64,000 nucleotides of DNA from Acidobacteriota bacterium (GTDB taxonomy: Bacteria > Acidobacteriota > Thermoanaerobaculia > Gp7-AA8), in assembly GCA_003223645.1 (NCBI GenBank), contig QHVT01000006.1:340967-404966 (forward strand), written 5' to 3'. The notes beneath the pieces were generated by a model, which searched no databases, was not told the DNA's origin, and was given only the letters and a program-made list of their open reading frames with translations. Positions 1,385 to 63,465 of this stretch are shown here, in pieces (the stretch's first letter is position 1; every line of letters starts with the position of its first letter). The position numbers were made by a program, and so were the translations under genes.

Positions 1385-2884
1385 CTAATCGCGCACTTTC
1401 GCGGTGCCGTCGAAATATGCCTGGTACTTCGGCCAGCTCCACACCGCGATCTCGCGTCCGACTTTCAATCCGACGTTGTTGTCGACGGGGATGTGATAGC
1501 CGCCCATCGCGCGCGAGAGGGCGGCCATGTCGGCGGTCGCGGTCCACGTCGGCAAATCGAGCGTCATCTCTTCACCCGGATTGTCCTCGGTCAGCTCACA
1601 GTGTTTGCGCTTCTCGCAGTAGCCGTACTTGTCCGTGCCGGTGAAGAGCTCGAGGGTCTTCGAGCACGCGCCGCTGACGGTCGCATGTCCGCTCGTGTAG
1701 CCGGGGAACGGCGGCGTGACGAATGACTCCGGTGAATACGGATGCCACTCCTCGGCCGGCATGTCGCGCACGCCGCCCTTCACGCCCGCCCAGCCCTTGA
1801 CCGTCTGGCCTTTGAAGAAATAGTGGACGAGCGTCCACGGCCGCGACGAGTCGTAGTAGCGCTTCGTCTCCCAGCAGGAGATGAACGCGTCGAACGCGAC
1901 GTTCGCGACGGCGAAGTACATCTTCACGTCGGTGTCGAGATCGTGATTGTCGCGGCGCGAGACGTCCTGCGAGAAGCGCAGCCAGTGCCCGCTCTGTCCC
2001 GTCGAGCGCGGGCCGTCGCGCATGAACTCGACGATTGCTTTTTGTTCATGCGTCAGCGAGTTGTTGTACGTCAGGACCTGCGCCGCTTCTTTCTTCAGCG
2101 CGTCGGCGTCGGTCGTCGTCTTCGGCGGAGGCGGCGGGCGGAACTGCGAGCTGCTCTCCATCACGAACGGCTTCACGCGATACCAAAACGGGGTGAGAAA
2201 TCCCGGCGTGATCTGGCGGCCGTCTTTCAGTTTGAACGTGATCGGCTGCCAGCGATCGGGATCGATGATCTTGTCGGGCGGATTCACCGGCACGTAGTAC
2301 GTGTAGTCCGCGTACGGCTTGCCGTTGCCGCCCGCTTCGTCGCCGAGCTGATTTGCGCCGTCGTGCCGGCGGTAGTCGATCACCGCCTGCGCCGCGAGAT
2401 TGCCGATGCCTTCCGGCGTCGCGGGATCGACCGACTCGTTCGCCGGGTCGTATCCCATCTTCTTCATCTCGCCGTCGAGATACGCCTTCGCTTCGGGATA
2501 GACGAACAGCAGCGACTTGTACGACGCGTAGCTGATCGCCTTCTTCTTGTTCTCCAGCGTCCGCTCGTTTTCGGGGCGGCGCAGTTTGCCGCCGAGCCGC
2601 GATCCCACCGCTTTCGCGTCGTATGCGGCCCACGCATCGAACATCGCCGTCGCCCAGATCGCGAGCGTGCGCGAGACGATCGTCGGCCGCGCGCCGTTCG
2701 CATCCACCTCGCGCGCCGTCGCCTCTTCGGCGATGTCGAGCCAGACGTAGGCGAGCGAGACGTGCGATTTGTCCTCGATCGGGAGGAAATGATGCAGCGG
2801 CTTCTCCTGCGCGCACAGCGGCGCGGCGAGGAGAACGACAGCTATCGCGAGAACCAGGGCCCGATGCATGACGAAGCGGATCAA
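1385..2884 (-). CDS. PAP2 superfamily / vanadium-dependent haloperoxidase-like secreted protein
   Basis: N-terminal signal peptide; PAP2/haloperoxidase motifs KRYYDSSRP, GYTSGHAT and SRAMGGYHIPVD (K..RP / PSGH / SR..H..D) in a 499 aa protein. Confidence 0.6.
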   Translation of the reverse strand: MIRFVMHRALVLAIAVVLLAAPLCAQEKPLHHFLPIEDKSHVSLAYVWLDIAEEATAREVDANGARPTIVSRTLAIWATAMFDAWAAYDAKAVGSRLGGKLRRPENERTLENKKKAISYASYKSLLFVYPEAKAYLDGEMKKMGYDPANESVDPATPEGIGNLAAQAVIDYRRHDGANQLGDEAGGNGKPYADYTYYVPVNPPDKIIDPDRWQPITFKLKDGRQITPGFLTPFWYRVKPFVMESSSQFRPPPPPKTTTDADALKKEAAQVLTYNNSLTHEQKAIVEFMRDGPRSTGQSGHWLRFSQDVSRRDNHDLDTDVKMYFAVANVAFDAFISCWETKRYYDSSRPWTLVHYFFKGQTVKGWAGVKGGVRDMPAEEWHPYSPESFVTPPFPGYTSGHATVSGACSKTLELFTGTDKYGYCEKRKHCELTEDNPGEEMTLDLPTWTATADMAALSRAMGGYHIPVDNNVGLKVGREIAVWSWPKYQAYFDGTAKVRD

Positions 2885-2898
2885 GGAAAGTTTAGCAT

Positions 2899-2988
2899 GT
2901 GGCGACCGCTGCCCTCAGCGGTCGCGCGGTGCGAAGCGCCGCCGGCCGGCAAAGCCGGCGGTGCCGCTGAGGGCAGCGGCACCCACAA
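2899..2988. repeat. REP-like double-hairpin palindromic element (GTGGCGACCGCTGCCCTCAGCGGTCGCG ... GTGCCGCTGAGGGCAGCGGCACCCACAA), copy 1
   Basis: Two mutually reverse-complementary arms, each itself a stem-loop; same arms recur at 8380, 17228 and 63342. Confidence 0.8.
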
Positions 2989-3006
2989 AGTCGACGGCGG
3001 CAAGTG

Positions 3007-3507
3007 CTACGCCTTCGGCTTCGGCAACGGGAACTCTTCGCGCGTCGGTCCGAACATGCCGGCCGGTTTTCCGCCCGACTGGCGAATCATCATCGTGAGC
3101 TGGCCGCGGTGATGCGCGCCGTGGAGCACGATGAAGTCCCACAGGTGATCGCGCATCGGCACGTCTCCGCCGAACGTTTTGATCGGGCGGTCGAGATCTT
3201 CGGCCGTGTATCCGCTCAAACGCTCGCGCGCTTCGCGATGCACGCGCTCGTACTCCGGCGCAAGCGCTTCGACAGACTTCGGACGTTGCATTCCCGGCGG
3301 GCGCTCGTCCATCGCGTACGCGCCTTTGGCAGCGAAGAACGAGCCGTACGCCTCCCCTTCCGCGAGGTGCCAGGCCATCTCTCCGATCGACCGTCCCTCG
3401 GGGTCGGGGCGATAGTCGTATTGGTCCTTCGGAATCGTCTGCAGCAGTTTCACGGTCTTCGCGGCCTCACGGTCCCACACGTCGATGAATCGTTCGAGCT
3501 CGTTCAT
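3007..3507 (-). CDS. DinB/YfiT-like (DinB_2) metal-dependent hydrolase family protein
   Basis: 166 aa from MNELERF; HxxxH-type motif HGAHHRGQ; GGAAGGAG RBS 8 nt upstream; ATGA start/stop overlap with upstream gene. Long N-terminal extension of the 480-aa ORF is Arg-rich and rejected. Confidence 0.7.
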   Translation of the reverse strand: MNELERFIDVWDREAAKTVKLLQTIPKDQYDYRPDPEGRSIGEMAWHLAEGEAYGSFFAAKGAYAMDERPPGMQRPKSVEALAPEYERVHREARERLSGYTAEDLDRPIKTFGGDVPMRDHLWDFIVLHGAHHRGQLTMMIRQSGGKPAGMFGPTREEFPLPKPKA

Positions 3508-6479
3508 TTGCCAGCAATCTCCTTCCATGCATTCAGTGCGCGCTCGACTTCCGGCTTCAGTTTCGCGAAGCCTTCGCGCGCGTCGGGGCTCGGTGCTGCA
3601 TCCGCTCCGTCGACCGCGTCGAGCACGTTCTCGATCGCGGCGAGATAGAAGCGGAGGTTTTTCGGCGGCGGTGCGTTCGGCATGCTCGTCGATCCGAACG
3701 TGGCACTGAGACCGGCGACTTCTTCGATCCGTTTCCGCATCGGCTCGCCGGTCGTCTTCTTGTACAGCGACTCGGACTCGGTGACCGCCGCGTCGAGAGC
3801 GAAGCGCAACACGTCGATCTGCTTCGCGAGCGCGAACTGTTCGGCATACGCGGACATCGGCACTTTCACGCGCGGATCGGGATCGATGCGCAGCGGCTGT
3901 TCGAGCTTGCGATCGCCGACCGTGAGGACGACGCGATAGTCGCCCGGCGGCGCCCAGATGCCGGGGCTCCACACGCCGCGGGTTCCGGCGAGACGGATCG
4001 GCCAGACGAAGCGATGCATCCCCGGCGTCGCCGGCAGCATTACCGGCATCGGAAACCACTCCGGCGCGGTGCGCAGCTTCGCGGGATCGATCTCCGGCGG
4101 CGCGTCGGCGCTGCTGTAACGGCGCACGAGCGCGTTCTGCGCGTCGAAGATTTCGAGCGTGACCGGCGTCGCCGCGTCGAGCACATAGTCGATGTACGCG
4201 CCGGCCGGCGGATTCGACGCGAGAGGCTCGTCCTTCGGCATCGGCGTGCCGGTGAATCCCGCGAAACGGAGTCTCACTACGGCCGCCGGCGTGAAAAGGT
4301 ACGGACGTTGACCAACGCGCTGCCGCAGCGGCGTGACGTCGTCCATGATCCAGAAGCCGCGCCCATGCGTCGCGATCACGAGATCGTTGCCGTGCACGTC
4401 GATGTCGCGCACCGACGTCACCGGCAGATTCATCTGCAGCGGCTGCCACGCTTCGCCGTCATCGAACGAGACGAAAATCCCGCGCTCCGTTCCGGCGTAC
4501 AGCAAGCCTTTCACCGCGCTGTCCTCGCGGACGACATTCACCGCGTGATTCGCAGGAATGCCGTTCACGATCAGCTTCCACGACTTGCCGCCGTCGTGCG
4601 TGCGGTAGATGTACGGGTGAAAATCGTCGAGGCGATGGCGGTCGACCGCGGCGTACGCGGTCTCCGCGTCGAAGTGCGACGCGTCGATGATGCCGATCTT
4701 CGACCACGGCGTCAGCGCCGCCGGCGTGACGTTCTGCCAGTGCGCGCCTTCGTCGTGCGTGCGCCAGATCAAACCGTCATCCGTGCCGGCCCAGAGGTCG
4801 TGATCGGCGACGCGCGACGGCGCGATCGCGTAGATCACGCCGCGTCGCGGACCGGTCTGCTGATGCAGCGCCGCCGTCGCCGCGTCGAGATTCGGCGGAA
4901 CGCCGGGATCCTCGCGCGTGAGATCGGGACTGATGATCGTCCACCGATTCCCGCCATCCTCGGTGCGATACAAACGCTGGTTCGCGAAATAGAGCACGCG
5001 CGGATCGCGCACGGAAAAGACGAGAGGCAGCGTCCACGTGCGGCGCTCGTTGCCTTCGAAATGCGCGAGTGTCGGATCGACCGAGCGCGTCTGCTGCGTG
5101 CGCAGGTCGAGACGATCGACGCGGCCGCCGTAGATGATGTGATCGTCTTTCGGATCGGGCGCGATGTTGTCGCTCTCCCCTCCCGCGGTCGTCTCGCGGA
5201 AGTTCATCATCGTGATGCCGTCGATCGTGTTCGTGCGGCTCGGCAGACTCACCGCGCCGGAGTCCTGCTGCGCGCCGTAGACCTTGTACGGGAAGCTCGT
5301 GTCGGTGCTGACGTGATAGAGCTGCGCGGTCGGCTGGTTGTACCAGCTGGTCCACGTTAGGCCGCCGTTGACGGACACGACCGCGCCCTGGTCTACGCCG
5401 AGGATGCGGCGCGCGGGAAACTGCGGATCGATCCAGAGCGTGTGATAGTCGTCGCCTCCCGGCGCGCCTTTCACCGGCACGAACACTTTGCCGCCGTCGT
5501 CCGAGCGAAAGAGATTCACGTTGCACGAGTAGACGACGTCGGCGTTCTCCGGCTCGACGGTGATCTCGCCGAAATACCAGCCGCGGCTCCAAACGCGCGT
5601 GTCGCTCGACGTGCGCGTCCAATGCGCGCCCGCGTCGTCGGAGCGATACATCCCGCCTTCTTTCGCATCGACGATCGCGTACACGCGTTGCGGATTCGAC
5701 TGCGCGACGGCGAGGCCGATGCGGCCTGTATTCTCCGGAAACCCGTTGCCGCGAATCTCCGTCCAGTGGTCGCCGCCGTCCGTCGACTTGAACAAGCCGC
5801 CGTCCGGTCCGTTCGATGGCGGATAGACACTCCACGGCGGGCGGCGCGTTTCCCACAGCGCGGCGTACACCACGTTCGGATTGCCCGGCTCGAACGCGAG
5901 ATCGATCGCGCCGGCGTCGAAGCGGCTGAGGATGCGCGTCCACGTCGCGCCGCCATCGCGCGAGCGAAACACGCCGCGCTCGGTGTTCGAACCGTAGGGG
6001 TGTCCGAGGGCGCAGACGTAGACGAGATTCGGATCGGAGGGATGCACGCGGATGCGCGCGATCTGCTGCGAGTCGGCGAGGCCGATGTGCGACCACGTTT
6101 TGCCGCCGTCGGTCGAGCGATACATCCCGTTGCCCTGCGCGATGTCCGAGCGCATGTCCGATTCGCCGCTGCCGACGTAGATCACTTTCGGATTCGAAGG
6201 CGCCACCGCGATCGCGCCGATGGAACCGATCGGCTGACTGTCGAAGATCGGCTGCCACGTTCGTCCGGCGTCGCGCGTCTCCCACACGCCGCCGTTCACA
6301 CTGCCGAAGTAGAAATGCTCCGGCTCGTTCGGAACGCCGGTGACCGCGAGCACGCGTCCGCCGCGAAACGGACCGATCAAACGCCAGCGCAGATCCTGGA
6401 ACAGCGACGGATCGACGGTCGCCGCGTGGGCGAAGGCGGTGACGATGAGAAGAAGGGAGAGAAGGACTCGCTTCGACAT
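3504..6479 (-). CDS. BNR/Asp-box repeat glycosyl hydrolase-like protein (sortilin/Vps10- or GH74-like), secreted
   Basis: Signal peptide MSKRVLLSLLLIVTAFAHA; many S-x-D-x-G-x-T-W Asp-box repeats (RSTDGGKTW, RSRDGGATW, KSTDGGDHW, RSDDAGAHW, RTEDGGNRW, RTHDGGKSW). Confidence 0.65.
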   Translation of the reverse strand: MSKRVLLSLLLIVTAFAHAATVDPSLFQDLRWRLIGPFRGGRVLAVTGVPNEPEHFYFGSVNGGVWETRDAGRTWQPIFDSQPIGSIGAIAVAPSNPKVIYVGSGESDMRSDIAQGNGMYRSTDGGKTWSHIGLADSQQIARIRVHPSDPNLVYVCALGHPYGSNTERGVFRSRDGGATWTRILSRFDAGAIDLAFEPGNPNVVYAALWETRRPPWSVYPPSNGPDGGLFKSTDGGDHWTEIRGNGFPENTGRIGLAVAQSNPQRVYAIVDAKEGGMYRSDDAGAHWTRTSSDTRVWSRGWYFGEITVEPENADVVYSCNVNLFRSDDGGKVFVPVKGAPGGDDYHTLWIDPQFPARRILGVDQGAVVSVNGGLTWTSWYNQPTAQLYHVSTDTSFPYKVYGAQQDSGAVSLPSRTNTIDGITMMNFRETTAGGESDNIAPDPKDDHIIYGGRVDRLDLRTQQTRSVDPTLAHFEGNERRTWTLPLVFSVRDPRVLYFANQRLYRTEDGGNRWTIISPDLTREDPGVPPNLDAATAALHQQTGPRRGVIYAIAPSRVADHDLWAGTDDGLIWRTHDEGAHWQNVTPAALTPWSKIGIIDASHFDAETAYAAVDRHRLDDFHPYIYRTHDGGKSWKLIVNGIPANHAVNVVREDSAVKGLLYAGTERGIFVSFDDGEAWQPLQMNLPVTSVRDIDVHGNDLVIATHGRGFWIMDDVTPLRQRVGQRPYLFTPAAVVRLRFAGFTGTPMPKDEPLASNPPAGAYIDYVLDAATPVTLEIFDAQNALVRRYSSADAPPEIDPAKLRTAPEWFPMPVMLPATPGMHRFVWPIRLAGTRGVWSPGIWAPPGDYRVVLTVGDRKLEQPLRIDPDPRVKVPMSAYAEQFALAKQIDVLRFALDAAVTESESLYKKTTGEPMRKRIEEVAGLSATFGSTSMPNAPPPKNLRFYLAAIENVLDAVDGADAAPSPDAREGFAKLKPEVERALNAWKEIAGK

Positions 6480-8335: not shown

Positions 8336-8379
8336 ATTTTTTCACATCCTCAGAGGCTGTGAAAATTTCCAAGAGCTTT

Positions 8380-8475
8380 GTGGCGACCGCTGCCCTCAGC
8401 GGTCGCGGCGGCGCTACGCGCCGCTGGCGCCGCCGTGAGGCGGCGCTGTGACCGCTGAGGGCAGCGGTCACCACA
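8380..8475. repeat. REP-like double-hairpin palindromic element, copy 2
   Basis: GTGGCGACCGCTGCCCTCAGCGGTCGCGG ... CTGTGACCGCTGAGGGCAGCGGTCACCACA between convergent genes. Confidence 0.8.
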
Positions 8476-13957: not shown

Positions 13958-14482
13958 TTACCGTGTTGCAACCGCGCGCTCGAGTACTGCAAGACGCACA
14001 TCCCTCGGTCCCGCGATCTCGATGATCGCGCAACCGAGCTCGTACCCGCCGATGATCTCGAGCAGCTGGTCATTCATCGCTTCGCGCAGTGCCGGATCCT
14101 CGGACTCCGGTACATCGATGCGATCGGTGTCATTGAGAGGAAGGACGACGAGCAGGTCGACGTGGCGCATGCCGGTGGCGACGAGCTCCAACGCGGGCTC
14201 GATCAGGTCTCGAGCGTCGAGTGCGCGGAGGTACGCGAGAAAATCGACGGGACTGCGCTCCGCGATCACGCGCGCTCCGCGCTCGTGTGTACTGAGCCGC
14301 TCCACGCAAATCTCGAGTTGGCGATAGAAGTCGTCCGCTGCCGGCGGGTCGCTCATTTGATCGAGCCATTCGTACGGCTCGGGCTCGAACGCATAGTCCG
14401 CGTGAGCGGCGAGGAAGTCTTCGATCAGCGTGGTCTTCCCCGAGGCGTGCGTGCCGGAAACGGCGATTCTCACGCGGATCAC
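13958..14482 (-). CDS. Small P-loop NTPase (AAA_28-like ATPase/kinase fold)
   Basis: Walker A GTHASGKTT at residues 9-17; Walker B-like DLLVVLP; 174 aa. Confidence 0.6.
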   Translation of the reverse strand: MIRVRIAVSGTHASGKTTLIEDFLAAHADYAFEPEPYEWLDQMSDPPAADDFYRQLEICVERLSTHERGARVIAERSPVDFLAYLRALDARDLIEPALELVATGMRHVDLLVVLPLNDTDRIDVPESEDPALREAMNDQLLEIIGGYELGCAIIEIAGPRDVRLAVLERAVATR

Positions 14483-14502
14483 GGTATAACAGCGCGAAAT
14501 CG

Positions 14503-15333
14503 ATGAGCGGGCATGCGCGATTTCCGATTCGCGAGTGGCGCCGGGCGGTTGCCGCCGCGGCGCAACGCGTCGGCAGCGAGGCGATTGCGCCGTTCGGGTT
14601 CGAGCTGACCGGATCGGCGAAGTATCTCTCCTCCCACCTCCGATATCTTTTCATCTATCTCCTGCGCACGCCGTCGCCGTTGGGGAACGAGCCGCTGGTG
14701 CGCGAGATCTGTGATGCGCTCGATGGCGCGCTCGCCGACGTCGCGCGCACGATCGAGATCGTCGACTACGACCGCTTCACCGTGCCGACCGGTTTCGACG
14801 CATCGCGAACGCTGATCATTCGCTCGGTCGACGCGGAGCTGCCGCTGCTGCGGACGTGGGCGCGCTACATCGTCGCCGCGGCGCTCGCCGTCAACCGGCC
14901 GCGCATCACCGCCGTCACCGATTTCCATTCCGATCTGATGGCGCAGCGCTACTGCTGTCAGCTGGCGATCATGCACGACGCGCTGTTCGCTGCGCTGCCG
15001 AACATGCCCGCGCTTTCGCTGCGCGACGCGATCGGACGCCATCTCGGCGGGCTGCAGCGCGTCAGTCTCGCCGACCGCTTTCGCTTCGAGCTCGTGGATG
15101 CCGAAGTCGTGCGCGCGATCGGCATCGCCATCGATCGCTTTTACGCGGACGTGAACGTGAAGTGGAGCGACTCCGCGGCGAACATTCGCGTGCCCGACTT
15201 TCACGGCAAGGCGCTGCTCGATTATCCGCGGAGCGACGAGCTCGACCTGCTCGTGGCGATCGCCATCCAGCGATATGAGGAGTACGCGGACGACGCTACG
15301 CCGCGTGCAGCCAGCGCGCAAATGCTGCAATGA
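14503..15333 (+). CDS. Hypothetical protein
   Basis: 276 aa, strong GC3 bias; preferred over the Arg-rich antisense ORF 14479-15360. Confidence 0.45.
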   Translation: MSGHARFPIREWRRAVAAAAQRVGSEAIAPFGFELTGSAKYLSSHLRYLFIYLLRTPSPLGNEPLVREICDALDGALADVARTIEIVDYDRFTVPTGFDASRTLIIRSVDAELPLLRTWARYIVAAALAVNRPRITAVTDFHSDLMAQRYCCQLAIMHDALFAALPNMPALSLRDAIGRHLGGLQRVSLADRFRFELVDAEVVRAIGIAIDRFYADVNVKWSDSAANIRVPDFHGKALLDYPRSDELDLLVAIAIQRYEEYADDATPRAASAQMLQ

Positions 15334-17521
15334 GCGGGTGGACCGGCGCGGACGCGGCACGGCGATGCATCCACGCGTGCACCGTCTTCAGTTGCCGCGC
15401 GACGCGCAGACCGTTCTCTTCGACGGCGCGGCCGGTCTGATACGTGTCGATCGCGCAGTCGATCGCGCCGGTGCGCAGCCACGCTTCGACGCAGCCGGTG
15501 ACCGGCACCACATCGATTGCCGGATCCATCACGTCTCGCGCGACACTCGGCCACGCGGACGCACACGTGCTGCGTGATTCACCATCGCCGATTTCGACGA
15601 GGCGACAGGGATCGACGCCCAGCGGAAAGAGTGCTTCGATCTGGTCGCCGTCCTCGAGTCGCACGTCCTCGCCGAAGATCGCGTAGCCGGCCCATCCGCG
15701 CCGCAACATCGCCGGCAGATCGCGCGATCGCGCGAAGACGACTTGCAGCGCATGCGACGTGATGTTCCACGTCAGCTCGCCGGACTTGAACGGACCGGCG
15801 GCAATGCCGCCGTCATCGAAGAACGCGCGCAACAGCGAGCGCATCACCGCGCTGTTCGGCGCGGCGACGATCACCGGCGTTCGTTCCGCGGACGCAGCGA
15901 GATCCACAGCGTGCATCGCGCAATCGCGACGCGCGATCGCCGCGGCAGCCGCGAGCAACGCGCGCTGCAACATGACGCGCGCTTCGGCGAGCGCGGTGTC
16001 GCCAAGACGGGTCATGCGCGTGCCGGCGCAATTGAGAACGCGCACCGCGTGACGGTCGAGCCATTCGACGACGCGCGCGGCAACGTCGTCGGCAGGAACG
16101 CCGCGCAACTCGAGTACCGGCCGCCCCAGCCACCTCGCCGCTTTCCTCGTCTCCTCCGACCCCTCGGATTGCGCGTAGTCGAGCAGCAGCGTTCCGTCGC
16201 TCGCGAACACGTTCGCCCATGTGCAGAACCGGTAGCTCGGCGTCGCCAGCTCGAGAATCGTTGCGCCGTCGAGACGATCGGGTCCGCCTTCTCCGAGCTC
16301 GCTGCACTCGGTGCGCTTTCCCTCCGGCATGATTGCGAACGCCGTCACACCGAACGTGCGCGCGGTCTGCAGCGCGAGTTGATCGATTCCCGTTTGTCCG
16401 CAGCTCGTGATCACGAGCCCCGGACTGAGGTGCAATCGCGTCGCGAACGACGCCTCGGTCGTGCTGGAACTGCGCCGCTCGATGTGCGCGGGAAAAATCT
16501 CATTCAGGTCGTCGCTGCGCGGGACGTGCGACGACGGCGACTGCATCGCCGCGCGCGCCTGCGCCTGCGCCATGGCATGCGCATCGTCGACGCTCGCACC
16601 GTCGATGCGGCAGGCGAGAAACGCGCCGGCGTACGCGTCGCCGGCGCCGAGGACGTGCACTGCCGATGGAGCACTCTCGAGCGGCAAATGAATCGCGTCG
16701 CGTGCCCCGCGCTCTTTCCAGACCACGGGGCGCGAGCCGTCGGTGCCGATGCATTCGACGTTCGCGACGACGGATGCGAAGCGCAGCGAGCTCTCGTCCT
16801 GCAATGCCAGCTCCACGAAGTCACGCCGCTGACCGATCAGGAATCGCAGATTTGCAAACTGCTCGAGACGCGCGGGCGATCGCCAATCTGCAATCAACAG
16901 TGCCAGCTGATCGCAGCGATGAATGAAATCGAGCAGCGCATCGTCCGCGGCCAAGGCATCGCACAGCGTCATGACCAACAGATCGCACGGCTGCAAATCG
17001 CGATCGCCCTGCAGTTGCGCATTGTGTTCGTAGATCGCGATCTGCCGCACGTCGCCGGTCGTCTCTTCGATCAGGCAGTAGGCCTCGCGCGTGAATCCCT
17101 TTCGCCACACCGGCTCGAGGGCGACTCCCCACGCGCGCAGATGCGCGAGTCCGGCGTCGCTGAGAATCGCGTCGTCGAATTCGGCGTGGCCGTGCCAGCG
17201 GATCGGACCGGGACGCAGTGCGGCATTGTGGCGACCGCTGCCCTCGGCGGTCGCGGTGCCGCTGCGGGCAGCGGCACCCACAACGCGCGCCGATGCTGCC
17301 GCGCAGAGCGTGTTCGAAACCGTTCCTCCCGGCGTCCATCGCTGCTGCCCTCGCTCCGCCGCGAATCGCCGGTACGCCTCGCGTTCCTCGGAAGAGATCG
17401 CGAGCCGCACGTGGACGTCCGGCGCATGCGTTCGCAGAAACGCGTCGATCTCTCCGGAGGGAGCGATGATGATGTCATCGCGCGTGGCATGCCCGATCCC
17501 CAGTACAACGGCATCAGGCAT
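15296..17521 (-). CDS. Tri-domain fusion: PfkB-family sugar/nucleoside kinase + SLOG (putative molybdenum-carrier-like) domain + HisG-type ATP phosphoribosyltransferase
   Basis: PfkB motifs TPGGTVSNTLCAAASARV and GAGDAYAGAF; SLOG/MoCo-carrier motif ITSCGQTGIDQLALQTA ... SYRFCTWANVFASDGTLLL; HisG motifs DLPAMLRRGWAGYAIFGEDVRLE, LGVDPCRLVE, TGCVEAWLRTGAIDCAIDTYQTGRAVEENGL; ATG overlaps upstream gene stop by 8 nt (ATGCCTGA). Confidence 0.7.
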   Translation of the reverse strand: MPDAVVLGIGHATRDDIIIAPSGEIDAFLRTHAPDVHVRLAISSEEREAYRRFAAERGQQRWTPGGTVSNTLCAAASARVVGAAARSGTATAEGSGRHNAALRPGPIRWHGHAEFDDAILSDAGLAHLRAWGVALEPVWRKGFTREAYCLIEETTGDVRQIAIYEHNAQLQGDRDLQPCDLLVMTLCDALAADDALLDFIHRCDQLALLIADWRSPARLEQFANLRFLIGQRRDFVELALQDESSLRFASVVANVECIGTDGSRPVVWKERGARDAIHLPLESAPSAVHVLGAGDAYAGAFLACRIDGASVDDAHAMAQAQARAAMQSPSSHVPRSDDLNEIFPAHIERRSSSTTEASFATRLHLSPGLVITSCGQTGIDQLALQTARTFGVTAFAIMPEGKRTECSELGEGGPDRLDGATILELATPSYRFCTWANVFASDGTLLLDYAQSEGSEETRKAARWLGRPVLELRGVPADDVAARVVEWLDRHAVRVLNCAGTRMTRLGDTALAEARVMLQRALLAAAAAIARRDCAMHAVDLAASAERTPVIVAAPNSAVMRSLLRAFFDDGGIAAGPFKSGELTWNITSHALQVVFARSRDLPAMLRRGWAGYAIFGEDVRLEDGDQIEALFPLGVDPCRLVEIGDGESRSTCASAWPSVARDVMDPAIDVVPVTGCVEAWLRTGAIDCAIDTYQTGRAVEENGLRVARQLKTVHAWMHRRAASAPVHPLIAAFARWLHAA
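17228..17284. repeat. REP-like double-hairpin element, compact copy 3, inserted in-frame inside the PfkB domain coding region
   Basis: GTGGCGACCGCTGCCCTCGGCGGTCGCGGTGCCGCTGCGGGCAGCGGCACCCACAA; translated on minus strand as VVGAAARSGTATAEGSGRH directly after the PfkB GG..N..A...R motif. Confidence 0.75.
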
Positions 17522-18881
17522 ATTTCGTCACGGCGCCGCCGCAGTCGGTGATCATCTGACTCTCCAACTCTGCGATCTGCGGCGACCTGCGCGACGTCGA
17601 GAATTCGTCGCGCACCCAGGCCTCGAAGTCGGGATCCTGACGCGGCACCATGATGCCGTTCTTGAACTTCAATACGCTCTCTTTGAGCAGACGGATCTTC
17701 GCCTGCGGATGCATCCGGATGTAGCGGTAGGCAGTCACTCGATCGACGACCGCGACATCGCCGGCCGCCGCACTCACGATGCTGAGCGCAGTTCCGATGT
17801 CCGGATTCTGCACCACGATCGTATTGAACGACTCGATGCGGAGCTCGCGCACGGCGTACTCCCAACCGGCCTCCCCTTCCGCGACCGCCCAACGCAGTTG
17901 CATGCCGCGCAGATCGTCGAGCGTCTGGATCTTGCTGTCGTCCGCCACGACGGCGCAGAGGTCGATGCTGTGGAAGTTGCACGTGAAGTCCGCGTAGTCG
18001 CGGCGCTCGGAAGTCTCGAACACCGACAGCACGAGATCGATCGCGCGCGGATCCGCGACCGGCTTCGCGAAGATGTCGCTGGTGAACTCCTGCCATTGAA
18101 TCGGAACGAAGTCCACTTGCAGTCCGGTGCGCGCGGCGACGTCGCGCGCGAGATCGACGTAGTAGCCGCTGAACGTGACTTGCCGGTCATTCGTGAATTG
18201 GTAATCGGCGAGCGGCGGATGTTTCGTGACGCCGCAGCGCAGATGCCGTTTCGACATCACCAGCTCGCGGCGGCTCGGACGAAGGGACGTTGGTGAGAGT
18301 CTCGCGGTCGAGAGCTCCGGCCGCTGGAGCAATTGTCGTAAATGCTGCTCCACCCGTTCAAAGAATCCCTTCTCGCTGCCGCGGACTCCCGAATACGTTC
18401 CGATGATGCCGAGCTTCTCGACTTCCTCGCGAAACTTGAACACGCGCGTCAGCTCTTTCGAGGCCGCGACGGACTTCGGCTGCGGAGGATCATCGTTGAA
18501 ATAGAACAGCATCCACGCCTGCGTCTTCGCGTTCACGTTCTCGAGCGCGTTGCGGAACTCCTTCTCCGTACCCGACGCGCGCTTGCCGCCGCCGCCGAAG
18601 CGGGACGACATGATGCCGAGGTAGATGTCGCAGAGAGGCGTCTGGTCGTCGACGACGTCCTGCGGCGCGAGCCCGAGGCGCGGGATGACGTTGTCCTCCC
18701 ACTTGAACAGCTTGAGCTGACGCCCGGTCAGATTCCCCTCGGTTTCGTTGATGCGCGCGATCACTTCATCGAGGACGTTGCGCTCCGGCTCGCAGTCGCC
18801 GGGCGAAGAGACGAAGATTCGGATGAATGACAATGGAGGCTCCGGCTTTTTGGGATGTCGATGCTTCCCAAAATGATACAC
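17514..18881 (-). CDS. DUF4062-like N-terminal domain fused to cytoplasmic family-3 solute-binding (PBP type II) domain
   Basis: GTG start with GAGG 5 nt upstream; N-terminus FIRIFVSSPGDCEPERNVL matches DUF4062 signature; C-terminal 250 aa match SBP_bac_3 (GYYVDLARDVAARTGLQVDFVPIQWQEF ... LDDLRGMQL ... VDRVTAYRYI); no signal peptide. Confidence 0.65.
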   Translation of the reverse strand: MYHFGKHRHPKKPEPPLSFIRIFVSSPGDCEPERNVLDEVIARINETEGNLTGRQLKLFKWEDNVIPRLGLAPQDVVDDQTPLCDIYLGIMSSRFGGGGKRASGTEKEFRNALENVNAKTQAWMLFYFNDDPPQPKSVAASKELTRVFKFREEVEKLGIIGTYSGVRGSEKGFFERVEQHLRQLLQRPELSTARLSPTSLRPSRRELVMSKRHLRCGVTKHPPLADYQFTNDRQVTFSGYYVDLARDVAARTGLQVDFVPIQWQEFTSDIFAKPVADPRAIDLVLSVFETSERRDYADFTCNFHSIDLCAVVADDSKIQTLDDLRGMQLRWAVAEGEAGWEYAVRELRIESFNTIVVQNPDIGTALSIVSAAAGDVAVVDRVTAYRYIRMHPQAKIRLLKESVLKFKNGIMVPRQDPDFEAWVRDEFSTSRRSPQIAELESQMITDCGGAVTKYA

Positions 18882-37403: not shown

Positions 37404-37648
37404 TCCGCATCGTCGCGCGCGTCGTCGCGATCGCGCTCGTCGCGCTGCCTGTTACGTTCGTCGTGACGTTTCTGCTGATGCCGCTCTGGTCGTGGATCGA
37501 GTCGCGATTCCACATCGAGTCGGTCGGGCACTCCGGTCCTGCGAACTGGTGCTTCTTCATCGTGTACGCCACGCTGGTCGTGATCGGACTGGCGCTTCAA
37601 TATCGAAGAATGCGCTCCAGCGGCCCTCTATACAAATCGTCATCCTGA
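37400..37648 (+). CDS. Small membrane protein (two TM)
   Basis: GTG start overlapping DoxX stop (GTGA); C-terminal codons lie in MITE-like element so 3' end may be disrupted. Confidence 0.4.
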   Translation: MIRIVARVVAIALVALPVTFVVTFLLMPLWSWIESRFHIESVGHSGPANWCFFIVYATLVVIGLALQYRRMRSSGPLYKSSS

Positions 37649-37732
37649 GTCGGCGAAGCGCAACGAAGGATCTCGAAATGCGAAGAGCCTGCAATTTAGA
37701 GATCCTTCGCCGTCTACGCGGCTCAGGATGAC
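37639..37732. repeat. MITE-like nested palindrome with terminal inverted repeats GTCATCCTGAG...CTCAGGATGAC
   Basis: GTCATCCTGAGTCGGCGAAGCGCAACGAAGGATCTCGAAATGCGAAGAGCCTGCAATTTAGAGATCCTTCGCCGTCTACGCGGCTCAGGATGAC; inner IR CGAAGGATCTC/GAGATCCTTCG; degenerate relative at 8120-8335. Confidence 0.75.
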
Positions 37733-37797
37733 GAGCAACACAACGCTCAGAGCGGTCCTGGTTGCTTTGGACCTTGGTAACTTGTTACCATGGTCCC

Positions 37798-38462: not shown

Positions 38463-38604
38463 CGGCTGTCCCGCGCTGAATGAAACCGACGCGCGGCGAC
38501 TTGTGGAGCGGCGCCCGCCCTCGGGCGCCGACTCTCGCGAGAATCCGGCGGCCGAGGGCGGCCGCCGCTCCACAGGAACGTTGCGAGTGGCATCGTTCGC
38601 GGCC

Positions 38605-53187: not shown

Positions 53188-54000
53188 CTAATTCACGATC
53201 CACGACGCCAGCCTCTTTTCGAGAAACGCCTTCATGCCTTCCTGTCCTTCTTCCGACACGCGCCGCTCGGCGATCGCCTCGATCGTGTACGGAATTGCAT
53301 CGACGAGCTCGTGCGATACGACGTGTGCGATCAGCTTCTTGCACTCGCGCACGGCTTCCGGTCCCGCGGTCTTGAGCTGCGTGACCGTTTCGTAGACCGC
53401 AGCGTCGAGCTCTTCGATCGTGTCGACGGTGCGATGCACGAGTCCGATGCGCAGCGCGCGCTCCGCTTCGAAGCGCTCGCCGGTGAGGAAGAGCGCGCGC
53501 GCGTGCGTCTCGCCGATCTTCGCGATCACGTACGGTGAGATCAGCGCGGGGAGGATGCCGAGCTTCACTTCGGAGAGTCCGAACTTCGCGTCGCTCATCG
53601 CGATCGCGATGTCGCAGACCGCGGCGAGTCCGACGCCTCCGCCGATCGCGGCGCCCTGAATACGTCCGACGATCGGCAGCGGACAGGAATTCATCAGCGC
53701 GAACAGCTTCGCGACGTGCGAGGAGTCGCGCACGTTTTCGTCGCGCGTGTACGCGACCATGCGCGACATCCAATTCAGGTCCGCGCCCGCGCAGAACGTT
53801 TTGCCCGCGCCCTTGATCACGATCGCGCGAGCCGCATCGGTGTCGACATGTTCGAACAAGTCGACCGCCTCCGCGATCAGTTCATCGTTGAACGCGTTGT
53901 GCACCTCGGGGCGGTTGAGAGTGACGGTGAGAACTCCGTCGGCAAGCTCGACGAGGAGTGTGTTGTACGCCATACGACGCGGATTGTAGTGGAGCTGCAT
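53188..54000 (-). CDS. Enoyl-CoA hydratase/isomerase family (methylglutaconyl-CoA hydratase-like)
   Basis: Crotonase fold motifs KTFCAGADL, GAAIGGGVGLAAVCD; start may be the second Met (53973). Confidence 0.75.
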   Translation of the reverse strand: MQLHYNPRRMAYNTLLVELADGVLTVTLNRPEVHNAFNDELIAEAVDLFEHVDTDAARAIVIKGAGKTFCAGADLNWMSRMVAYTRDENVRDSSHVAKLFALMNSCPLPIVGRIQGAAIGGGVGLAAVCDIAIAMSDAKFGLSEVKLGILPALISPYVIAKIGETHARALFLTGERFEAERALRIGLVHRTVDTIEELDAAVYETVTQLKTAGPEAVRECKKLIAHVVSHELVDAIPYTIEAIAERRVSEEGQEGMKAFLEKRLASWIVN

Positions 54001-54038
54001 GTGGTGACCGCTGCCTCAGCGGTCATCACATGAGCAAT

Positions 54039-56261
54039 CTAATGTCGCACGCTGCGAGCGCGCGGCGGAGTTGCCTGTCCGAAGAATGCCTGGAACCAGT
54101 AGTCGGGCTCGACGCCCAGTGTCCCGTTGGGCTCGATCTTCAACGTGATCGTCGTTCCCGGCACTTTGCTTCCGAGCGGAACCGCGCCCGTCGAGTACGG
54201 CGGCACGTCGACGATGGCGAACTGACCGCCGCCCGTGAGCGTTGCGCGCAGAGGCGTGTCGCCGGTGTTGTGGATGTCGACGAGCGTCGTGCTGTTCAAC
54301 GTCAACTGGAACTTGTAGAAGTCGACGTCGCCGGCCGTGCAGAAGCCGCCGTAGATCTTCGCGTTGTCGACGATGTTGCCCCATGCGGTCGCGCTCGTGT
54401 CGTTCGGCTCCTGCACGTCGGCGCACGGACGCGCGCCGCGCGCGGTCGTGACGATCGTCGCGCTCTGCGGTCCCTGTGGAACATTCGTGCCGGTGACGAC
54501 GATGCGATACGCGCCGGGAGCGGCGTTCGCGATCTCGACCATCTCGGTGTTGTCGATGGTGTTCACGCCGCGTGTGGCGACGGCGTCGACGTGATTCTTG
54601 TCGAGGACGTACGGCAAGTACGTGGTGCCGGTCGGTCCGATGATCTTGAGATCGAGATCATTCACCAGCGCCGGTGCAGTCGAGACCTGATTTTCAGGAA
54701 GAAACTTCGGCGGATCGGGCCACTGCAACACGACGCGCAGGTTCTGCGTCGATTGCACGACCACCGGCATCTCGAATTGCTGTTTGTCCGCGAGCGTGAT
54801 CGAGCGGATGCGATTGTGAGCGCCGTGATCGGCGACGATGAGATCGACCGAGTCCTTCGCGTTCACCATGCCGAAGCCGTAGGTGTAATCGGGACCGGGA
54901 TTGCCGAGGTCATTGGTGCCGGCGATGATCAGCGCCTTCAGCTCTTCCGGCTTCGGATTGGTCGCAAACGTGCGGCGCCACTGCTCGGTCACGAGCGCAG
55001 CCACTCCCGTGACCACCGGCGCTGCCATCGAAGTACCAGACAGACTGCCATAGGAATTGGTAGGAAAACTGGAAAAGACGCTGGCACCGCGCGCCACGAC
55101 TTCCGGCTTGATGCGTCCGTCTTTCGCTGGACCGCGCGAGCTGAGGCCGAGGATCTCGACGTTTGTGCTGACGGCACCGACGGTGAGGACGTTCTTGGCG
55201 GAACCGGAAACCGAGATCGTGTCGAACGGCTGCGCCGCGTGATGCTTCGTCGTCTCGCAGCTCGTGCACGGCAACGGGCAGTCGCTGCCGCTGCTGTTCT
55301 TCGAGTAGCAGAAGACCTGATCGGTGATCACGGCGTTGGTTGACGCGTTGCGATGACGATGCTCGTTCCATGTTCCGCCGGGGCCGTCATCCGCTTCGTT
55401 GCCGGATGAATGAACGAAAAGCACTCCCTTGTCGCGCGAGATCTGATCGAGCGGCGCGGAGTATTCATAGTCGTACGCACCGAAGTACTCGGAGTTGTTG
55501 TCCCACACCGGATAGCCGCCGACGGGCGCGCTCCAGCCGATGACGAATCCCCAGGAGTTGTTGTCGGCGACGACGCCGCGCGACGCGAGCTCGTTGGTCT
55601 TCGTCGCGTTGTAGAGCGCCTCGCCGTTCGGTCCGAGCTCCGCCTTGAACTGATAGATCGTCGCGTTCGGCGCCATTCCTTTCGCGGAGGGATTCAAGCC
55701 CGACGCGGCGATCGTGCCGGCGACGTGCGTCGCGTGCGCCTGATCGCCCGTCGCGCCGCCCGTCGTCATCACGTTGAAGCGTCCGCCGAACTCGATGTGC
55801 GACGACTGCCCTGCCGCGAGCTCGAACTGCGAGACGACGACACCCGCGCCCGACAATCCATACGGCGCGGCCTGCAACTCCGTCACGTGTGCGAGCGACG
55901 CGGACACGGCGTTGTGAGTTTTCAACTGGAAGTGACGCGAGCCGCCGATCATCCGCACGCGCTCATCGTTCGCGAGCGCGTTCAAGGACGGCGGCGCGAT
56001 CTTCGCCGTGATCTCGCGCGTCGATCCGAAGTCGGTCGCGAAGATGTCGTCGAGCGCGCCGCCGGCGGCGAGAATCGCCGCGCGCGCGTCGTCGAACGAC
56101 ACATTGTCCTTGAAGTAGACGTTGACGCGCGCGAATGCTTCGGCGCGCGCGGCCGCGCGGTACGCGGAGGGCTGGATCTTGTCCTCAGTGAAGCGGTCGG
56201 CGGCCGGAGCGGCCGCCGCTCCACTGAGGGAGACGACTAACGCGAAAACGAGGACGCGCAT
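54039..56261 (-). CDS. S8-like subtilase with C-terminal pre-peptidase-type domain, secreted; catalytic Asp position non-canonical
   Basis: Signal peptide; His motif HATHVAGTIAA, oxyanion SSGNEADDG, Ser motif GTSMAAPVVTG; expected V-x-V-I-D-T/S-G replaced by VVVSQFE. Confidence 0.7.
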   Translation of the reverse strand: MRVLVFALVVSLSGAAAAPAADRFTEDKIQPSAYRAAARAEAFARVNVYFKDNVSFDDARAAILAAGGALDDIFATDFGSTREITAKIAPPSLNALANDERVRMIGGSRHFQLKTHNAVSASLAHVTELQAAPYGLSGAGVVVSQFELAAGQSSHIEFGGRFNVMTTGGATGDQAHATHVAGTIAASGLNPSAKGMAPNATIYQFKAELGPNGEALYNATKTNELASRGVVADNNSWGFVIGWSAPVGGYPVWDNNSEYFGAYDYEYSAPLDQISRDKGVLFVHSSGNEADDGPGGTWNEHRHRNASTNAVITDQVFCYSKNSSGSDCPLPCTSCETTKHHAAQPFDTISVSGSAKNVLTVGAVSTNVEILGLSSRGPAKDGRIKPEVVARGASVFSSFPTNSYGSLSGTSMAAPVVTGVAALVTEQWRRTFATNPKPEELKALIIAGTNDLGNPGPDYTYGFGMVNAKDSVDLIVADHGAHNRIRSITLADKQQFEMPVVVQSTQNLRVVLQWPDPPKFLPENQVSTAPALVNDLDLKIIGPTGTTYLPYVLDKNHVDAVATRGVNTIDNTEMVEIANAAPGAYRIVVTGTNVPQGPQSATIVTTARGARPCADVQEPNDTSATAWGNIVDNAKIYGGFCTAGDVDFYKFQLTLNSTTLVDIHNTGDTPLRATLTGGGQFAIVDVPPYSTGAVPLGSKVPGTTITLKIEPNGTLGVEPDYWFQAFFGQATPPRARSVRH

Positions 56262-61020: not shown

Positions 61021-61037
61021 TTGCTGTGCACTCTCTT

Positions 61038-61143
61038 CCCGTGCCCGCGCCCGTGCCCGCTCCCGCGCCCGGGGCGGGTGGCGAGCGAAGCGACTTCGTG
61101 CCCCCACCCCGAGCGCGGAAGCGGGCACGGGCTCGGGCGCGGG
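61038..61143. repeat. GC-rich tandem-unit palindrome (CCCGTGCCCGCGC-type units and reverse complements)
   Basis: CCCGTGCCCGCGCCCGTGCCCGCTCCCGCGCCCGGGGCGGG ... CCCCGAGCGCGGAAGCGGGCACGGGCTCGGGCGCGGGAG between hbd and crt genes. Confidence 0.75.
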
Positions 61144-61147
61144 AGAA

Positions 61148-62032: not shown

Positions 62033-62080
62033 GTCAGAACTCCTGTTCGGAAAGTCGGGCGCATTCTAAGCGAAGGATGA

Positions 62081-62162
62081 AAGCAGAAGGCAGAAGGCAG
62101 AAGTGAGAAGTTAGCCGTTCTCATTTCTTACTTCTGCCTTCTGCCCTCTGCCTTCTGCCTTC
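62081..62162. repeat. Tandem-heptamer hairpin repeat (GCAGAAG units)
   Basis: AAGCAGAAGGCAGAAGGCAGAAGTGAGAAGTTAGCCGTTCTCATTTCTTACTTCTGCCTTCTGCCCTCTGCCTTCTGCCTTC in divergent intergenic region. Confidence 0.85.
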
Positions 62163-62181
62163 ATTCGCTATCCTTGCACCC

Positions 62182-63336
62182 GTGTCGCAACGGAAGTTAA
62201 AACCCCAGGTCCTCCTCTTCGGCCTCGTCTCGCTCCTCAACGACTCCGCGAGCGAGATGATTTATCCGCTCCTCCCCGTCTTCCTCACGTCGACCCTCGG
62301 CGCGTCGCCGGCGGTCATCGGGCTGATCGAGGGCGCAGCCGACGGGCTCGCGTCGATTCTCAAATACTTCGCCGGCTCGTGGTCGGATCGACTGCAGCGC
62401 CGCAAGCCGCTCGTCGTGTGGGGATACGCGCTCGCGGCGGCGTCGCGCGCGCTCATCGCGGCGGCGACGATGTGGCCGGTGGTGTTGACCGCGCGTCTCA
62501 TCGATCGCACGGGCAAAGGCATCCGCTCTGCTCCGCGCGACGCGATGATCTCGGACGTCACGCCGCGCGAAGAGCGCGGACGTGCGTTCGGATTTCAGCG
62601 CGCGCTCGACCACACCGGCGCGGTCATCGGTCCGCTGATGGCCATGCTGGTGATGAGCGGAATCGGCTTGTCGCTGCGCACGACGATCTATCTCGCGGTG
62701 ATTCCGGGCGCGATCGGGGTGCTGTTGCTGCTCGTGTTCCTGCGCGAAGAGCCGCGCGAGCCGCGCACGACGCCGAGCAGCGAATCGTCAACGCGTTTAC
62801 CTTCGACGTTCACGCACGCCATCTTCGCAATCGCGCTCTTCTCCCTCGCGAACTCGAGCGACGCGTTCCTGCTGCTGCAGGCGCACGCGATGGGCGTCAC
62901 GACCGCGCTGCTGCCGCTGCTGTGGGCCGCGCATCACGTGATCAAGTCGCTCTTCACCACCGCCGCGGGCGGACTCTCCGATCGCGTCGACCGCCGCTGG
63001 CTGCTCGTCGCGGGATGGACGTCGTACGCGATCATCTACGCCGCGTTTCCCTACGCGCGCACGCTCACCGCGTTCTTCGTCCTCTTCATCGTCTACGCGA
63101 TCCCATTCACGCTCGCCGAAGGCGCGGAGCGCGCGTGGATCGCCGATCTCGTTCCCGCCGACGCGCGCGGAAAATCCTTCGGCATCTACTACCTCGCCAA
63201 CGGAATGTGCGTCCTCGCGGGAACGGCGATCTTCGGCGTGATGTATCAGGAGATCTCGCCGCGCGCGGCGTTCTCCACGGGAGCTGCGCTGGCGATCGCG
63301 GCAGTCGTCGCGGTGCTGGCCACGCGTCGTCGCTGA
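62182..63336 (+). CDS. MFS transporter
   Basis: GTG start; 12 predicted TM; DRLQRRKP motif after TM2. Confidence 0.75.
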   Translation: MSQRKLKPQVLLFGLVSLLNDSASEMIYPLLPVFLTSTLGASPAVIGLIEGAADGLASILKYFAGSWSDRLQRRKPLVVWGYALAAASRALIAAATMWPVVLTARLIDRTGKGIRSAPRDAMISDVTPREERGRAFGFQRALDHTGAVIGPLMAMLVMSGIGLSLRTTIYLAVIPGAIGVLLLLVFLREEPREPRTTPSSESSTRLPSTFTHAIFAIALFSLANSSDAFLLLQAHAMGVTTALLPLLWAAHHVIKSLFTTAAGGLSDRVDRRWLLVAGWTSYAIIYAAFPYARTLTAFFVLFIVYAIPFTLAEGAERAWIADLVPADARGKSFGIYYLANGMCVLAGTAIFGVMYQEISPRAAFSTGAALAIAAVVAVLATRRR

Positions 63337-63341
63337 ACTAT

Positions 63342-63438
63342 GTGGCGACCGCTGCCCTCAGCGGTCGCGGCGGCGCACCGCGCCGCTGGGCGCCGCCATT
63401 CGGCGGCGCTGTGACCGCTGAGGGCACGGTCACCACAA
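63342..63438. repeat. REP-like double-hairpin palindromic element, copy 4
   Basis: GTGGCGACCGCTGCCCTCAGCGGTCGCGG ... CTGTGACCGCTGAGGGCACGGTCACCACAA between convergent genes. Confidence 0.8.
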
Positions 63439-63465
63439 CCCAAAGCCTGAGAATGCCGTGCCGGG

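Follow-up and report, generated by a model that had tools for sequence, protein, structure and literature searches.

The stretch of 64,000 nucleotides analysed here (the window; contig QHVT01000006.1 of an Acidobacteriota bacterium, positions 340,967 to 404,966) contains a 54-base palindromic repeat of a normally intergenic kind, which is confirmed to lie in frame within an intact three-domain gene, where it adds a surface loop of 18 residues to the protein. Events of this type are known from Rickettsia and Opitutus, and the repeat family itself is apparently undescribed. The added observation is that in-frame insertion into genes occurs generally and often in this family, the units of which begin with GTGG. 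The segment is very probably a non-autonomous palindromic repeat, i.e., a compact GTGG variant of the dimers formed by repetitive extragenic palindromic (REP) sequences, similar to REPINs, and composed of two inverted 27-nt units. Within one lineage of soil Acidobacteriota, the family is abundant.

Concerning the host gene, the open reading frame (ORF) of 741 codons reads through the element, as a first-pass annotation of this DNA had claimed: residues 80-98 are read as VVGAAARSGTATAEGSGRH, the frame is kept, and no stop occurs. The product matches NCBI PYQ30054.1, a hypothetical protein of an Acidobacteria metagenome-assembled genome (MAG), and contains according to Pfam the domains PfkB (PF00294, E = 2.2e-12), circularly permuted YpsA/SLOG (2e-19), and HisG (1.3e-12), the PfkB match spanning residues 125-332 and thus beginning only after the insertion. 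Fourteen further proteins with the three-domain PfkB-cpYpsA-HisG architecture were found (29-64% identity). In the comparison with these orthologs, which had been named beforehand as potentially refuting an insertion, the segment is present in none of the 14, down to 29% identity, and P0002 and P0004 are 18 codons shorter. Residues 1-79 align with the orthologs throughout, including the invariant D15, V38, G65, G66, and N70, such that the start codon cannot be shifted downstream of the element; the N-terminal domain, moreover, superposes on whole PfkB kinases (see below), and the earlier concern about a misplaced start is thereby settled. The residues characteristic of PfkB/ribokinase proteins (G65, G66, N70, and L291-G292-A293-G294-D295) are invariant in the 15 sequences.

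The size of the insertion can be read from the DNA of P0002 and P0004, two orthologs that are among the closest and are situated in conserved gene neighbourhoods: WTPGG and W.G.AE are separated by 35 codons in these two versus 53 in the window gene. The excess amounts to exactly 18 codons, i.e., 54 nt, the same as the length of GTGG...CCAC at 17228-17281, such that the in-frame loop insertion proposed earlier stands, whereas the 19 residues given for it are one too many. Excision of 17228-17281 leaves GTT|AAT, and the reconstructed empty site reads ...GCGCGCGTT|AATGCCGCA... The 741-aa product is recorded on 16 contigs, and gene and element are identical in DNA across six of the loci fetched for comparison (L001-L006), which stem from separate assembly or run records and are over their full lengths 99.2-100% identical to the window. 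Both other members of the host protein's 90% cluster carry the insert as well.

In the AlphaFold model of the window protein (mean predicted local distance difference test, pLDDT, 87.8; predicted template modelling score, pTM, 0.89), a helix at residues 67-87 is followed by a loop (88-106) and a strand (107-114), and residues 89-102 constitute the sole long stretch of low confidence (pLDDT <50). The model of the insertion-free P0002 exhibits a helix at residues 66-80, a confident loop of 7 residues, and a strand at 88-95, with the later elements in the same order. Comparison of the two models agrees with the earlier placement of the insert at a loop after the PfkB GG..N motif: the insert is predicted to expand the loop after the helix that follows this N-terminal motif, whereby the helix becomes longer and the loop is modelled with low confidence or as disordered at the surface, and elsewhere the PfkB fold is predicted to stay as it is. 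In Foldseek comparisons, the N-terminal domain matched whole PfkB sugar/adenosine kinases (4e3a, 3ubo; target-normalised TM-score 0.75, around 360 columns) and the C-terminal domain short-form HisG (TM-score around 0.8). The host protein probably remains functional.

The element itself, TGTGGCGACCGCTGCCCTCGGCGGTCGCGGTGCCGCTGCGGGCAGCGGCACCCACA at 17227-17282, is a compact 56-nt palindrome with the ends TGTGG...CCACA that consists of two inverted, GTGG-headed hairpin units. A repeat finder detects in it two perfect inner hairpins (17231-17238/17247-17254 and 17255-17265/17268-17278), which are enclosed by outer arms of 28 nt (17223-17250/17259-17286; 79% complementary). Folded as single-stranded DNA, the element forms two hairpins with a TGTGG/CCACA closing stem (-32 kcal/mol, z = -3.25), and its minimum-energy fold as RNA is a single long hairpin (-53.1 kcal/mol, z = -4.36). 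The 27-nt units thus have the dimensions of REP stem-loops (20-40 nt, stem of 5-13 bp, loop of 2-20 nt), and the outer arms together with the RNA fold correspond to the definition of a REPIN, i.e., two inverted REPs that can be folded into one hairpin. Compared to the family consensus, unit A exhibits a single A-to-G change, by which the stem pair T-A becomes T-G. The flanking T and A of the 56-nt block either belong to the element as its ends or represent a strict T|A target. On each strand, the element has two open reading phases out of three, and the third contains TGA. The coordinates of all features are compiled in Table 1.

Table 1. Host gene, parts of the inserted element, further copies in the window, and genes at other loci that carry the element in frame.
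Feature	Position or locus	Strand	Basis or remark
Host gene, PfkB kinase-cpYpsA (SLOG)-HisG-like fusion, 741 aa	15296..17521	-	Pfam, 14 orthologs, AlphaFold, Foldseek
Inserted element proper	17228..17281	.	54 nt GTGG...CCAC; codons 81-98 on the minus strand = VGAAARSGTATAEGSGRH
Conserved 56-nt block TGTGG...CCACA	17227..17282	.	End conservation across 101 copies
REP-like unit A, GTGGCGACCGCTGCCCTCGGCGGTCGC	17228..17254	+	GTGG head, 10-bp stem, 4-nt loop
REP-like unit B, inverted, reverse complement GTGGGTGCCGCTGCCCGCAGCGGCACC	17255..17281	-	One loop substitution vs consensus
Long-form copy	2898..2987	.	Between DinB-family gene stop and PAP2/VCPO gene start
Long-form copy	8379..8475	.	Intergenic, ~90 nt past subtilase gene stop
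Single-hairpin copy, TGTGGTGACCGCTGCCTCAGCGGTCATCACA	54000..54030	.	Adjoins enoyl-CoA hydratase gene 53188-54000
Long-form copy	63341..63437	.	Between convergent MFS transporter and YebC-like genes
In-frame host: TPR protein	L028, L131		
In-frame host: patatin	L054		Insert within domain
In-frame host: copper P-type ATPase	L046		Insert within HAD/N-domain; 9e-133 to Legionella CopA
In-frame host: TonB-dependent receptors	L055, L106		
In-frame host: PAS/HAMP histidine kinases	L100, L207		
In-frame host: Ser/Thr kinases	L130, L153		
In-frame host: transaldolase-PGI fusion	L142		Insert in linker
In-frame host: secretin	L076, L078		
In-frame host: YfhO-like and TMEM260-like membrane proteins	L129, L190		

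The window contains five copies of the element, and the four besides 17227-17282 are without exception situated in intergenic regions between Pfam-supported genes. The left 16-mer of the element, with up to 3 mismatches, is matched 9 times in the window (1.83 expected; none of 100 shuffles reaches 9), and the right 18-mer 4 times (0.08 expected). The three long forms possess the same ends as the compact copy and, in addition, a central GC-rich hairpin. ORFs that would enclose copies in the window, i.e., 1742-3112(+), 53958-55343(+), and 62379-63560(+), were rejected, as they have no Pfam support and each of them overlaps a supported gene located on the opposite strand or in a different frame.

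Outside the window, the family was sampled with two scans that demanded exact 20-mers, such that the counts cover the matches listed and decayed copies are unsampled. Among the matches in species-representative genomes (exact-pattern scan), the compact form ATGTGGCGACCGCTGCCCTCAGCGGTCGCGGTGCCGCTGAGGGCAGCGGCACCCACAT is dominant, and the element is found on many contigs of the Acidobacteriota MAGs CAVTGG01 (at least 11 element loci) and DATFHJ01, the latter labelled Thermoanaerobaculia. The matches listed in the scan of metagenome contigs with the 20-mer joining the two units are mostly soil contigs from JGI. After flank-based removal of duplicates, at least 101 unique compact copies remained, of which 80 are exactly 56 nt long and which differ from the consensus by around 1 edit on average. 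The 5' end TGTGG is present in 99 of these 101 copies (its first T in all of them) and the 3' end CCACA in 91; the GTGG head, one of the documented variants of the GTAG head of REPs (GTRG/GTGG), is thus kept in 99. The 56-nt block is directly bordered by A or T in 88 of the 101 copies at one end and in 95 at the other, the genomes having a G+C content of around 64%. No consistent target-site duplication was found among direct repeats of 1-5 nt in 95 copies under five boundary definitions; the sole duplication-like signal, AT...AT flanking the 54-nt core (40 of the 95 copies), is the palindrome itself.

Variants of the units exhibit compensatory double changes at three stem pairs (C-G/G-C/T-A, G-C/T-A, and A-T/G-C), and in a small, hand-picked sample all 70 pair cells are standard pairs (100%), versus 87% in shuffles. 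On this sequence evidence, each unit appears to be kept as a hairpin of its own. Furthermore, elements occur at orthologous sites in diverged contigs (L116/L192, L076/L078, L028/L131, and L150/L058), the flanks of which are around 81-89% identical after correction for the 56-nt gap; the elements of L116 and L192 are identical, including a shared variant base. These pairs fit a vertical persistence of some copies, as described for REPIN-type elements in bioRxiv 10.1101/2021.07.10.451892.

No Rfam family matches the element, the literature searches returned no description of it in Acidobacteria, and none of the REP-encoded peptides tabulated in PMC3733652 matches its peptide. A protein search with a 40-aa concatenation of both orientations yielded no candidate sharing words, and the 30-aa window peptide had one match among 1.84 billion representatives, P0138, both routes being too insensitive for an 18-aa module. 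The 110-aa ORF P0138 is probably not a real protein, as it consists of tandem element copies with a repeated spacer of around 30 aa, likely a non-coding cluster.

The position of copies relative to genes was determined with a codon-usage score trained on the Pfam-supported window genes, a copy being considered intragenic where one stop-free frame scored best on both of its sides. At least 34 of the 87 compact copies with sufficient flank to be classified (around 39%) lie in frame in coding sequence, and 53 others do not. The earlier statement that the other copies are intergenic is therefore correct for the window (4 of 4) but not for the family, and the analogy to Rickettsia drawn alongside it is apt, around 40% of the sampled compact copies in related genomes being in frame in coding sequence. 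Given that the coding density is close to 90%, the share of 39% means that genes are still under-represented as sites. The classifier is conservative, since it missed the window gene and also L037, a real protein with the insert in a GH43_C2-like domain. Family matches were obtained with Pfam for 17 of 18 classifier-positive host ORFs, in most of which domains flank the insert on both sides or span it; matches on one side only were found in the secretins, L129, L139, L153, and L190. At L046 (2979-4196, CopA, MAG DATFHJ01), the element is situated where the closest homologs (76-78% identity) lost a helix of around 25 residues possessed by other CopA proteins, which renders a count of the insert length ambiguous; here the insert occupies a segment that is degenerate and shortened, and is not a simple addition to a native loop.

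All 34 in-frame copies share one phase, V[GA][AT]AALSG[TR][AG][TA]AEGSG[RT]H, in either orientation. Both properties of Rickettsia palindromic elements (RPEs), in-frame insertion and a conserved encoded peptide, are thus found in the window gene and the 34 coding copies. The second open phase, WRPLPSAVAVPLRAAAPT, was seen once, namely in L189, which was recognised by homology as an ortholog of the window subtilase gene 54039-56261 and carries the insert around 45 residues past the signal peptide. This L189 gene (3610-6075) possesses around 70 extra N-terminal residues after the homologous signal peptide, with the element in the other open phase (MWRPLPSAVAVPLRAAAP); neither the extension nor the element is present in the window gene, and the L189 contig is syntenic with the window at around 46.6-59.8 kb (76-83% nucleotide identity). 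The supply of TA dinucleotides was rejected as a cause of the phase bias, because verified coding sequence contains 74 TA dinucleotides in the form xTA (T at position 2) versus 48 that straddle a codon boundary (T at position 3), such that target supply would favour the phase almost never seen. The simplest reading of the bias would be selection against the Trp/Pro-rich peptide. Concerning length, 33 of the 34 in-frame copies measure exactly 56 nt, versus 39 of the 53 elsewhere (Fisher p = 0.004); that length changes are nearly absent in coding copies and common outside is a signature of selection keeping host genes readable. The mean distance to the consensus is 1.00 edits in coding copies versus 1.04 in intergenic ones.

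As to the origin of the window copy, one element inserted into the coding sequence of the PfkB domain at a GTT|AAT (T|A) codon boundary, adding 18 codons. The phase in use yields a Gly/Ala/Ser/Thr-rich peptide, and the site corresponds to the loop after the helix behind the GG..N motif. Owing to the exact 18 codons, the open phase, and the loop site, the reading frame of the gene remains uninterrupted, and apart from helix and loop no change of the fold is predicted. The element may have been mobilised as single-stranded hairpin DNA by a REP-associated tyrosine transposase (RAYT) or an IS200-type tyrosine (HUH) transposase with a gene elsewhere in the genome, and selection would subsequently remove copies that shift the frame or lie in stop-containing or Trp/Pro-rich phases. 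A RAYT-like mobilisation is proposed because the GTGG head, the short GC-rich hairpin, the inverted units, and the lack of a target duplication match GTAG-type REPs; a cognate RAYT gene would be expected to be flanked by GTGGCGACCGCTG units. The only match in the motif scans is situated in a Bacteroidales locus (L036, 4990-5900; MAG JAJPXC01), where an ORF similar to Y1_Tnp and containing MPNHIHLL is flanked by copies of a Bacteroidales repeat, resembling a unit of REPs and RAYT gene. The 20-nt hairpin TGCCGCTGCCCTCAGCGGCA of unit B also occurs in this Bacteroidales/Prevotellaceae repeat family. The repeat concerned, CTGGGAGGGCCGCTGCCCTCAGCGGCC (L036 and, among L007-L087, the Prevotellaceae loci), is abundant and, apart from the shared core hairpin, unrelated to the acidobacterial element.

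Several points weigh against this interpretation. The closest insertion-free ortholog is only 62-64% identical, and the decision between 54 and 57 nt rests on length in a variable loop. A high-identity empty-site allele was not found in the collections searched; likewise, the joined flanks of each copy, compared by BLAST to all fetched loci, gave no high-identity empty site, and the L033/L136 pair was rejected as a ruler for the boundaries, being too diverged (around 69% identity). As all insertion-bearing alleles are identical in DNA, dN/dS is not measurable. Neither a RAYT nor a Y1 transposase was detected in the 64-kb window (six-frame scans for HUH and Tyr motifs) or, by motif scans, in the acidobacterial and soil-metagenome DNA among the around 200 fetched loci. 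The Y1_Tnp match of L036 is weak (21.8 bits compared to a Pfam cut-off of 23), and the link to Bacteroidales consists of a 20-nt identity in a short GC-rich hairpin. Finally, the intragenic census depends on the codon-usage classifier and on scans that listed only part of the exact 20-mer matches, and some of the copies counted are orthologous and hence not independent (L028/L131, L076/L078).

Among the alternatives, it is rather unlikely that the insertion, though real, is situated in a host gene that is non-functional, at least in its PfkB domain, the open frame being a recent accident in a GC-rich genome with frequent long open frames. The identity of all insertion alleles in DNA, and hence the lack of any trace of purifying selection after the insertion, would agree with such an accident, as would the start of the Pfam PfkB match only after the insertion. 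Against it speak the frame kept exactly over 741 codons, the ortholog-invariant D15, G65, G66, N70, and LGAGD 291-295, which are intact on both sides, the confidence of the model elsewhere (mean pLDDT 87.8, pTM 0.89), and the rarity of length changes in the coding copies of relatives (33 of 34 unchanged versus 39 of 53).

The main rival to a REP dimer is a classical MITE (miniature inverted-repeat transposable element), i.e., a deletion derivative of an insertion sequence (IS) mobilised in trans by a DDE transposase acting on TGTGG...CCACA terminal inverted repeats; the source insertion sequence would then have TGTGGCGACC terminal repeats. The element ends are indeed inverted repeats, TG...CA termini recall several IS families, the immediate flanks are rich in A/T as in TA-targeting elements, and a faint match to DDE_Tnp_IS1 lies around 8 kb from the host gene in L001. 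However, a consistent target-site duplication is lacking under any boundary definition, and a duplication of 2 nt would bar the in-frame insertion of the 54-nt core. In addition, 54-56 nt is below the typical size of MITEs, and each half forms a hairpin by itself, with compensatory changes and a GTGG head as in RAYT-associated REPs (PMC3733652), such that this origin is considered unlikely.

It seems similarly improbable that the intragenic copy is not just a tolerated parasite but is kept for a role at the level of nucleic acids, be it as an mRNA hairpin (affecting stability, pausing, or co-translational folding) or as a site for a DNA-binding protein. The very stable RNA hairpin (-53 kcal/mol, z = -4.4) might be taken as a sign of such a role, together with coding copies as near to the consensus as intergenic ones (1.00 versus 1.04 edits) and insertions kept at orthologous sites in the secretin (L076/L078) and the TPR protein (L028/L131). 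Recent bursts of copying, however, explain the similarity equally well, and decayed copies were left unsampled by the exact 20-mers. The unrelated hosts and varied positions, from linkers to domain interiors, argue for neutrality, as put forward in PMC3733652. An assembly or binning artefact in the form of a repeat-induced chimeric join, conceivable because assemblers may be misled by short palindromic repeats and the window stems from a MAG, can practically be dismissed in view of the 16 contigs with the 741-aa product, the identity of gene and element in six loci from separate records, and the homology of both flanks to a single orthologous gene in conserved order.

The organization of the element as a REP dimer is most readily compared to the GTAG-type REPs described by Di Nocera et al. 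(2013; PMC3733652), which include degenerate heads such as GTGG in Opitutus terrae and dimers with spacers as short as 1-2 bp. According to these authors, REPs are mostly intergenic, many are situated in frame in genes, intragenic dimers encode 20-30 aa in known proteins, and mobilisation by RAYT tyrosine transposases is hypothesised. The present element shares with GTAG-type REPs the short GC-rich stem-loop, the conserved terminal tetranucleotide, the inverted pairing, and the in-frame intragenic copies. It differs from these REPs in stem and loop sequence, in its acidobacterial host, in the lack of a spacer in the dimer, in the length of exactly 18 codons, and in the share of sampled compact copies located in coding sequence (around 39%), which nearly all use one phase.

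In the definition given by Bertels and Rainey (2011; PMC3116915), REPINs are doublets of inverted REPs that form hairpins, and the present element resembles them (PMC3116915; PMC3337134) in the folding of an inverted REP pair as a hairpin, in the apparently high copy number, and in the stronger conservation of doublets. In Pseudomonas, however, REPINs measure 71-110 bp with a spacer and were analysed extragenically, whereas the present element measures 54-56 bp and is often found in genes; furthermore, it is unaccompanied by a RAYT in the window and in the acidobacterial and soil loci scanned. Bacterial MITEs such as Correia, ERIC, and Nezha are likewise small and non-autonomous, with inverted ends and occasional in-frame fusions (PMC10969869), but have terminal repeats of 15-30 bp and target-site duplications produced by DDE enzymes, whereas in the present element no duplications were found and the halves are self-contained hairpins.

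In-frame intragenic palindromic repeats are already established, both as Rickettsia elements and as REPs in O. terrae, Thauera, and others (PMC3733652, PMC10969869). As summarised in these two sources, the Rickettsia elements are in frame in many unrelated genes, encode a conserved peptide, and are thought to be compatible with the fold of their hosts, as applies to the present element. RPE-1 is around 100-150 bp long and found in AT-rich, obligate intracellular alphaproteobacteria, whereas the present element is 54 bp long, GC-rich, and found in free-living soil bacteria. With size, base composition, and host differing, the likeness is one of analogy only. Going further, it is conceivable, though tentative, that this GTGG family of REP dimers has adapted to life inside genes; a free-living soil phylum would then possess an equivalent of the Rickettsia elements on a comparable scale. 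This idea is based on the length of exactly 18 codons, the absence of a target duplication, the two stop-free phases per strand, and the roughly 40% of sampled compact copies in frame; almost all of these use a single flexible phase rich in Gly/Ala/Ser/Thr, and some occupy orthologous sites in different species.

The three-gene arrangement around the fusion gene (window 13958-18881; L210, L212) is conserved in the orthologs P0002 and P0004: a DUF4062/SBP_bac_3 gene shares 8 nt with the beginning of the fusion gene, the end of which is overlapped by a convergent ORF of around 275 aa that belongs to no known family. In this genome, the neighbours of the fusion gene also include an AAA_28 gene and a HEPN AbiU2-like gene. 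This neighbourhood could be a nucleotide-signalling or conflict system.

The element often abuts start codons (e.g., in L037, L064, L148, L192, and L201, and in the window at 53998-54030), and at several related loci its end ...CCACATG is followed by a long, well-scoring ORF; the hairpin of such copies would occupy the expected position of the ribosome-binding site. The first T of the copy at 54000-54030 doubles as the last base of the minus-strand ATG of the enoyl-CoA hydratase gene.

The window also contains other palindromic repeats. At 38497-38575, a second dimer with TGTGG...CCACA ends and different stems (TGTGGAGCGGCGCCCGCC...GGCGGCCGCCGCTCCACA) is found, to which a sequence in L189 (around 6080-6150) is related and which is shared by L150, L152, and L178 at 88-93% identity, suggesting that several GTGG-headed REP families exist in these genomes. 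Three more repeats (37637-37735, 61036-61144, and 62072-62172), namely an element of around 97 nt with GTCATCCTGAG...CTCAGGATGAC ends, a CCCGTGCCCGCG-rich palindrome, and a palindrome of GAAGGCA repeats, are 82-92% identical to unrelated fetched loci.

The established picture of intragenic REPs and Rickettsia elements is left unchanged by these findings. The window gene nevertheless provides a clean, datable example of a protein that gains a loop of 18 residues from a selfish palindromic repeat. It also serves as a warning that gene callers and domain models may mishandle such genes, as exemplified by the Pfam PfkB match, which here starts after the insert. The presence of the same 54-nt module in dozens of unrelated proteins of abundant, uncultured soil Acidobacteriota constitutes a natural experiment on the tolerance of loops, and the shared peptide SGTATAEGSGR is usable as a marker for proteins decorated in this way in soil metaproteomes. 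If the family is indeed adapted to genes, it would be a natural source of new loops and linkers for proteins like the copper ATPase, TonB receptors, sensor kinases, and secretins.

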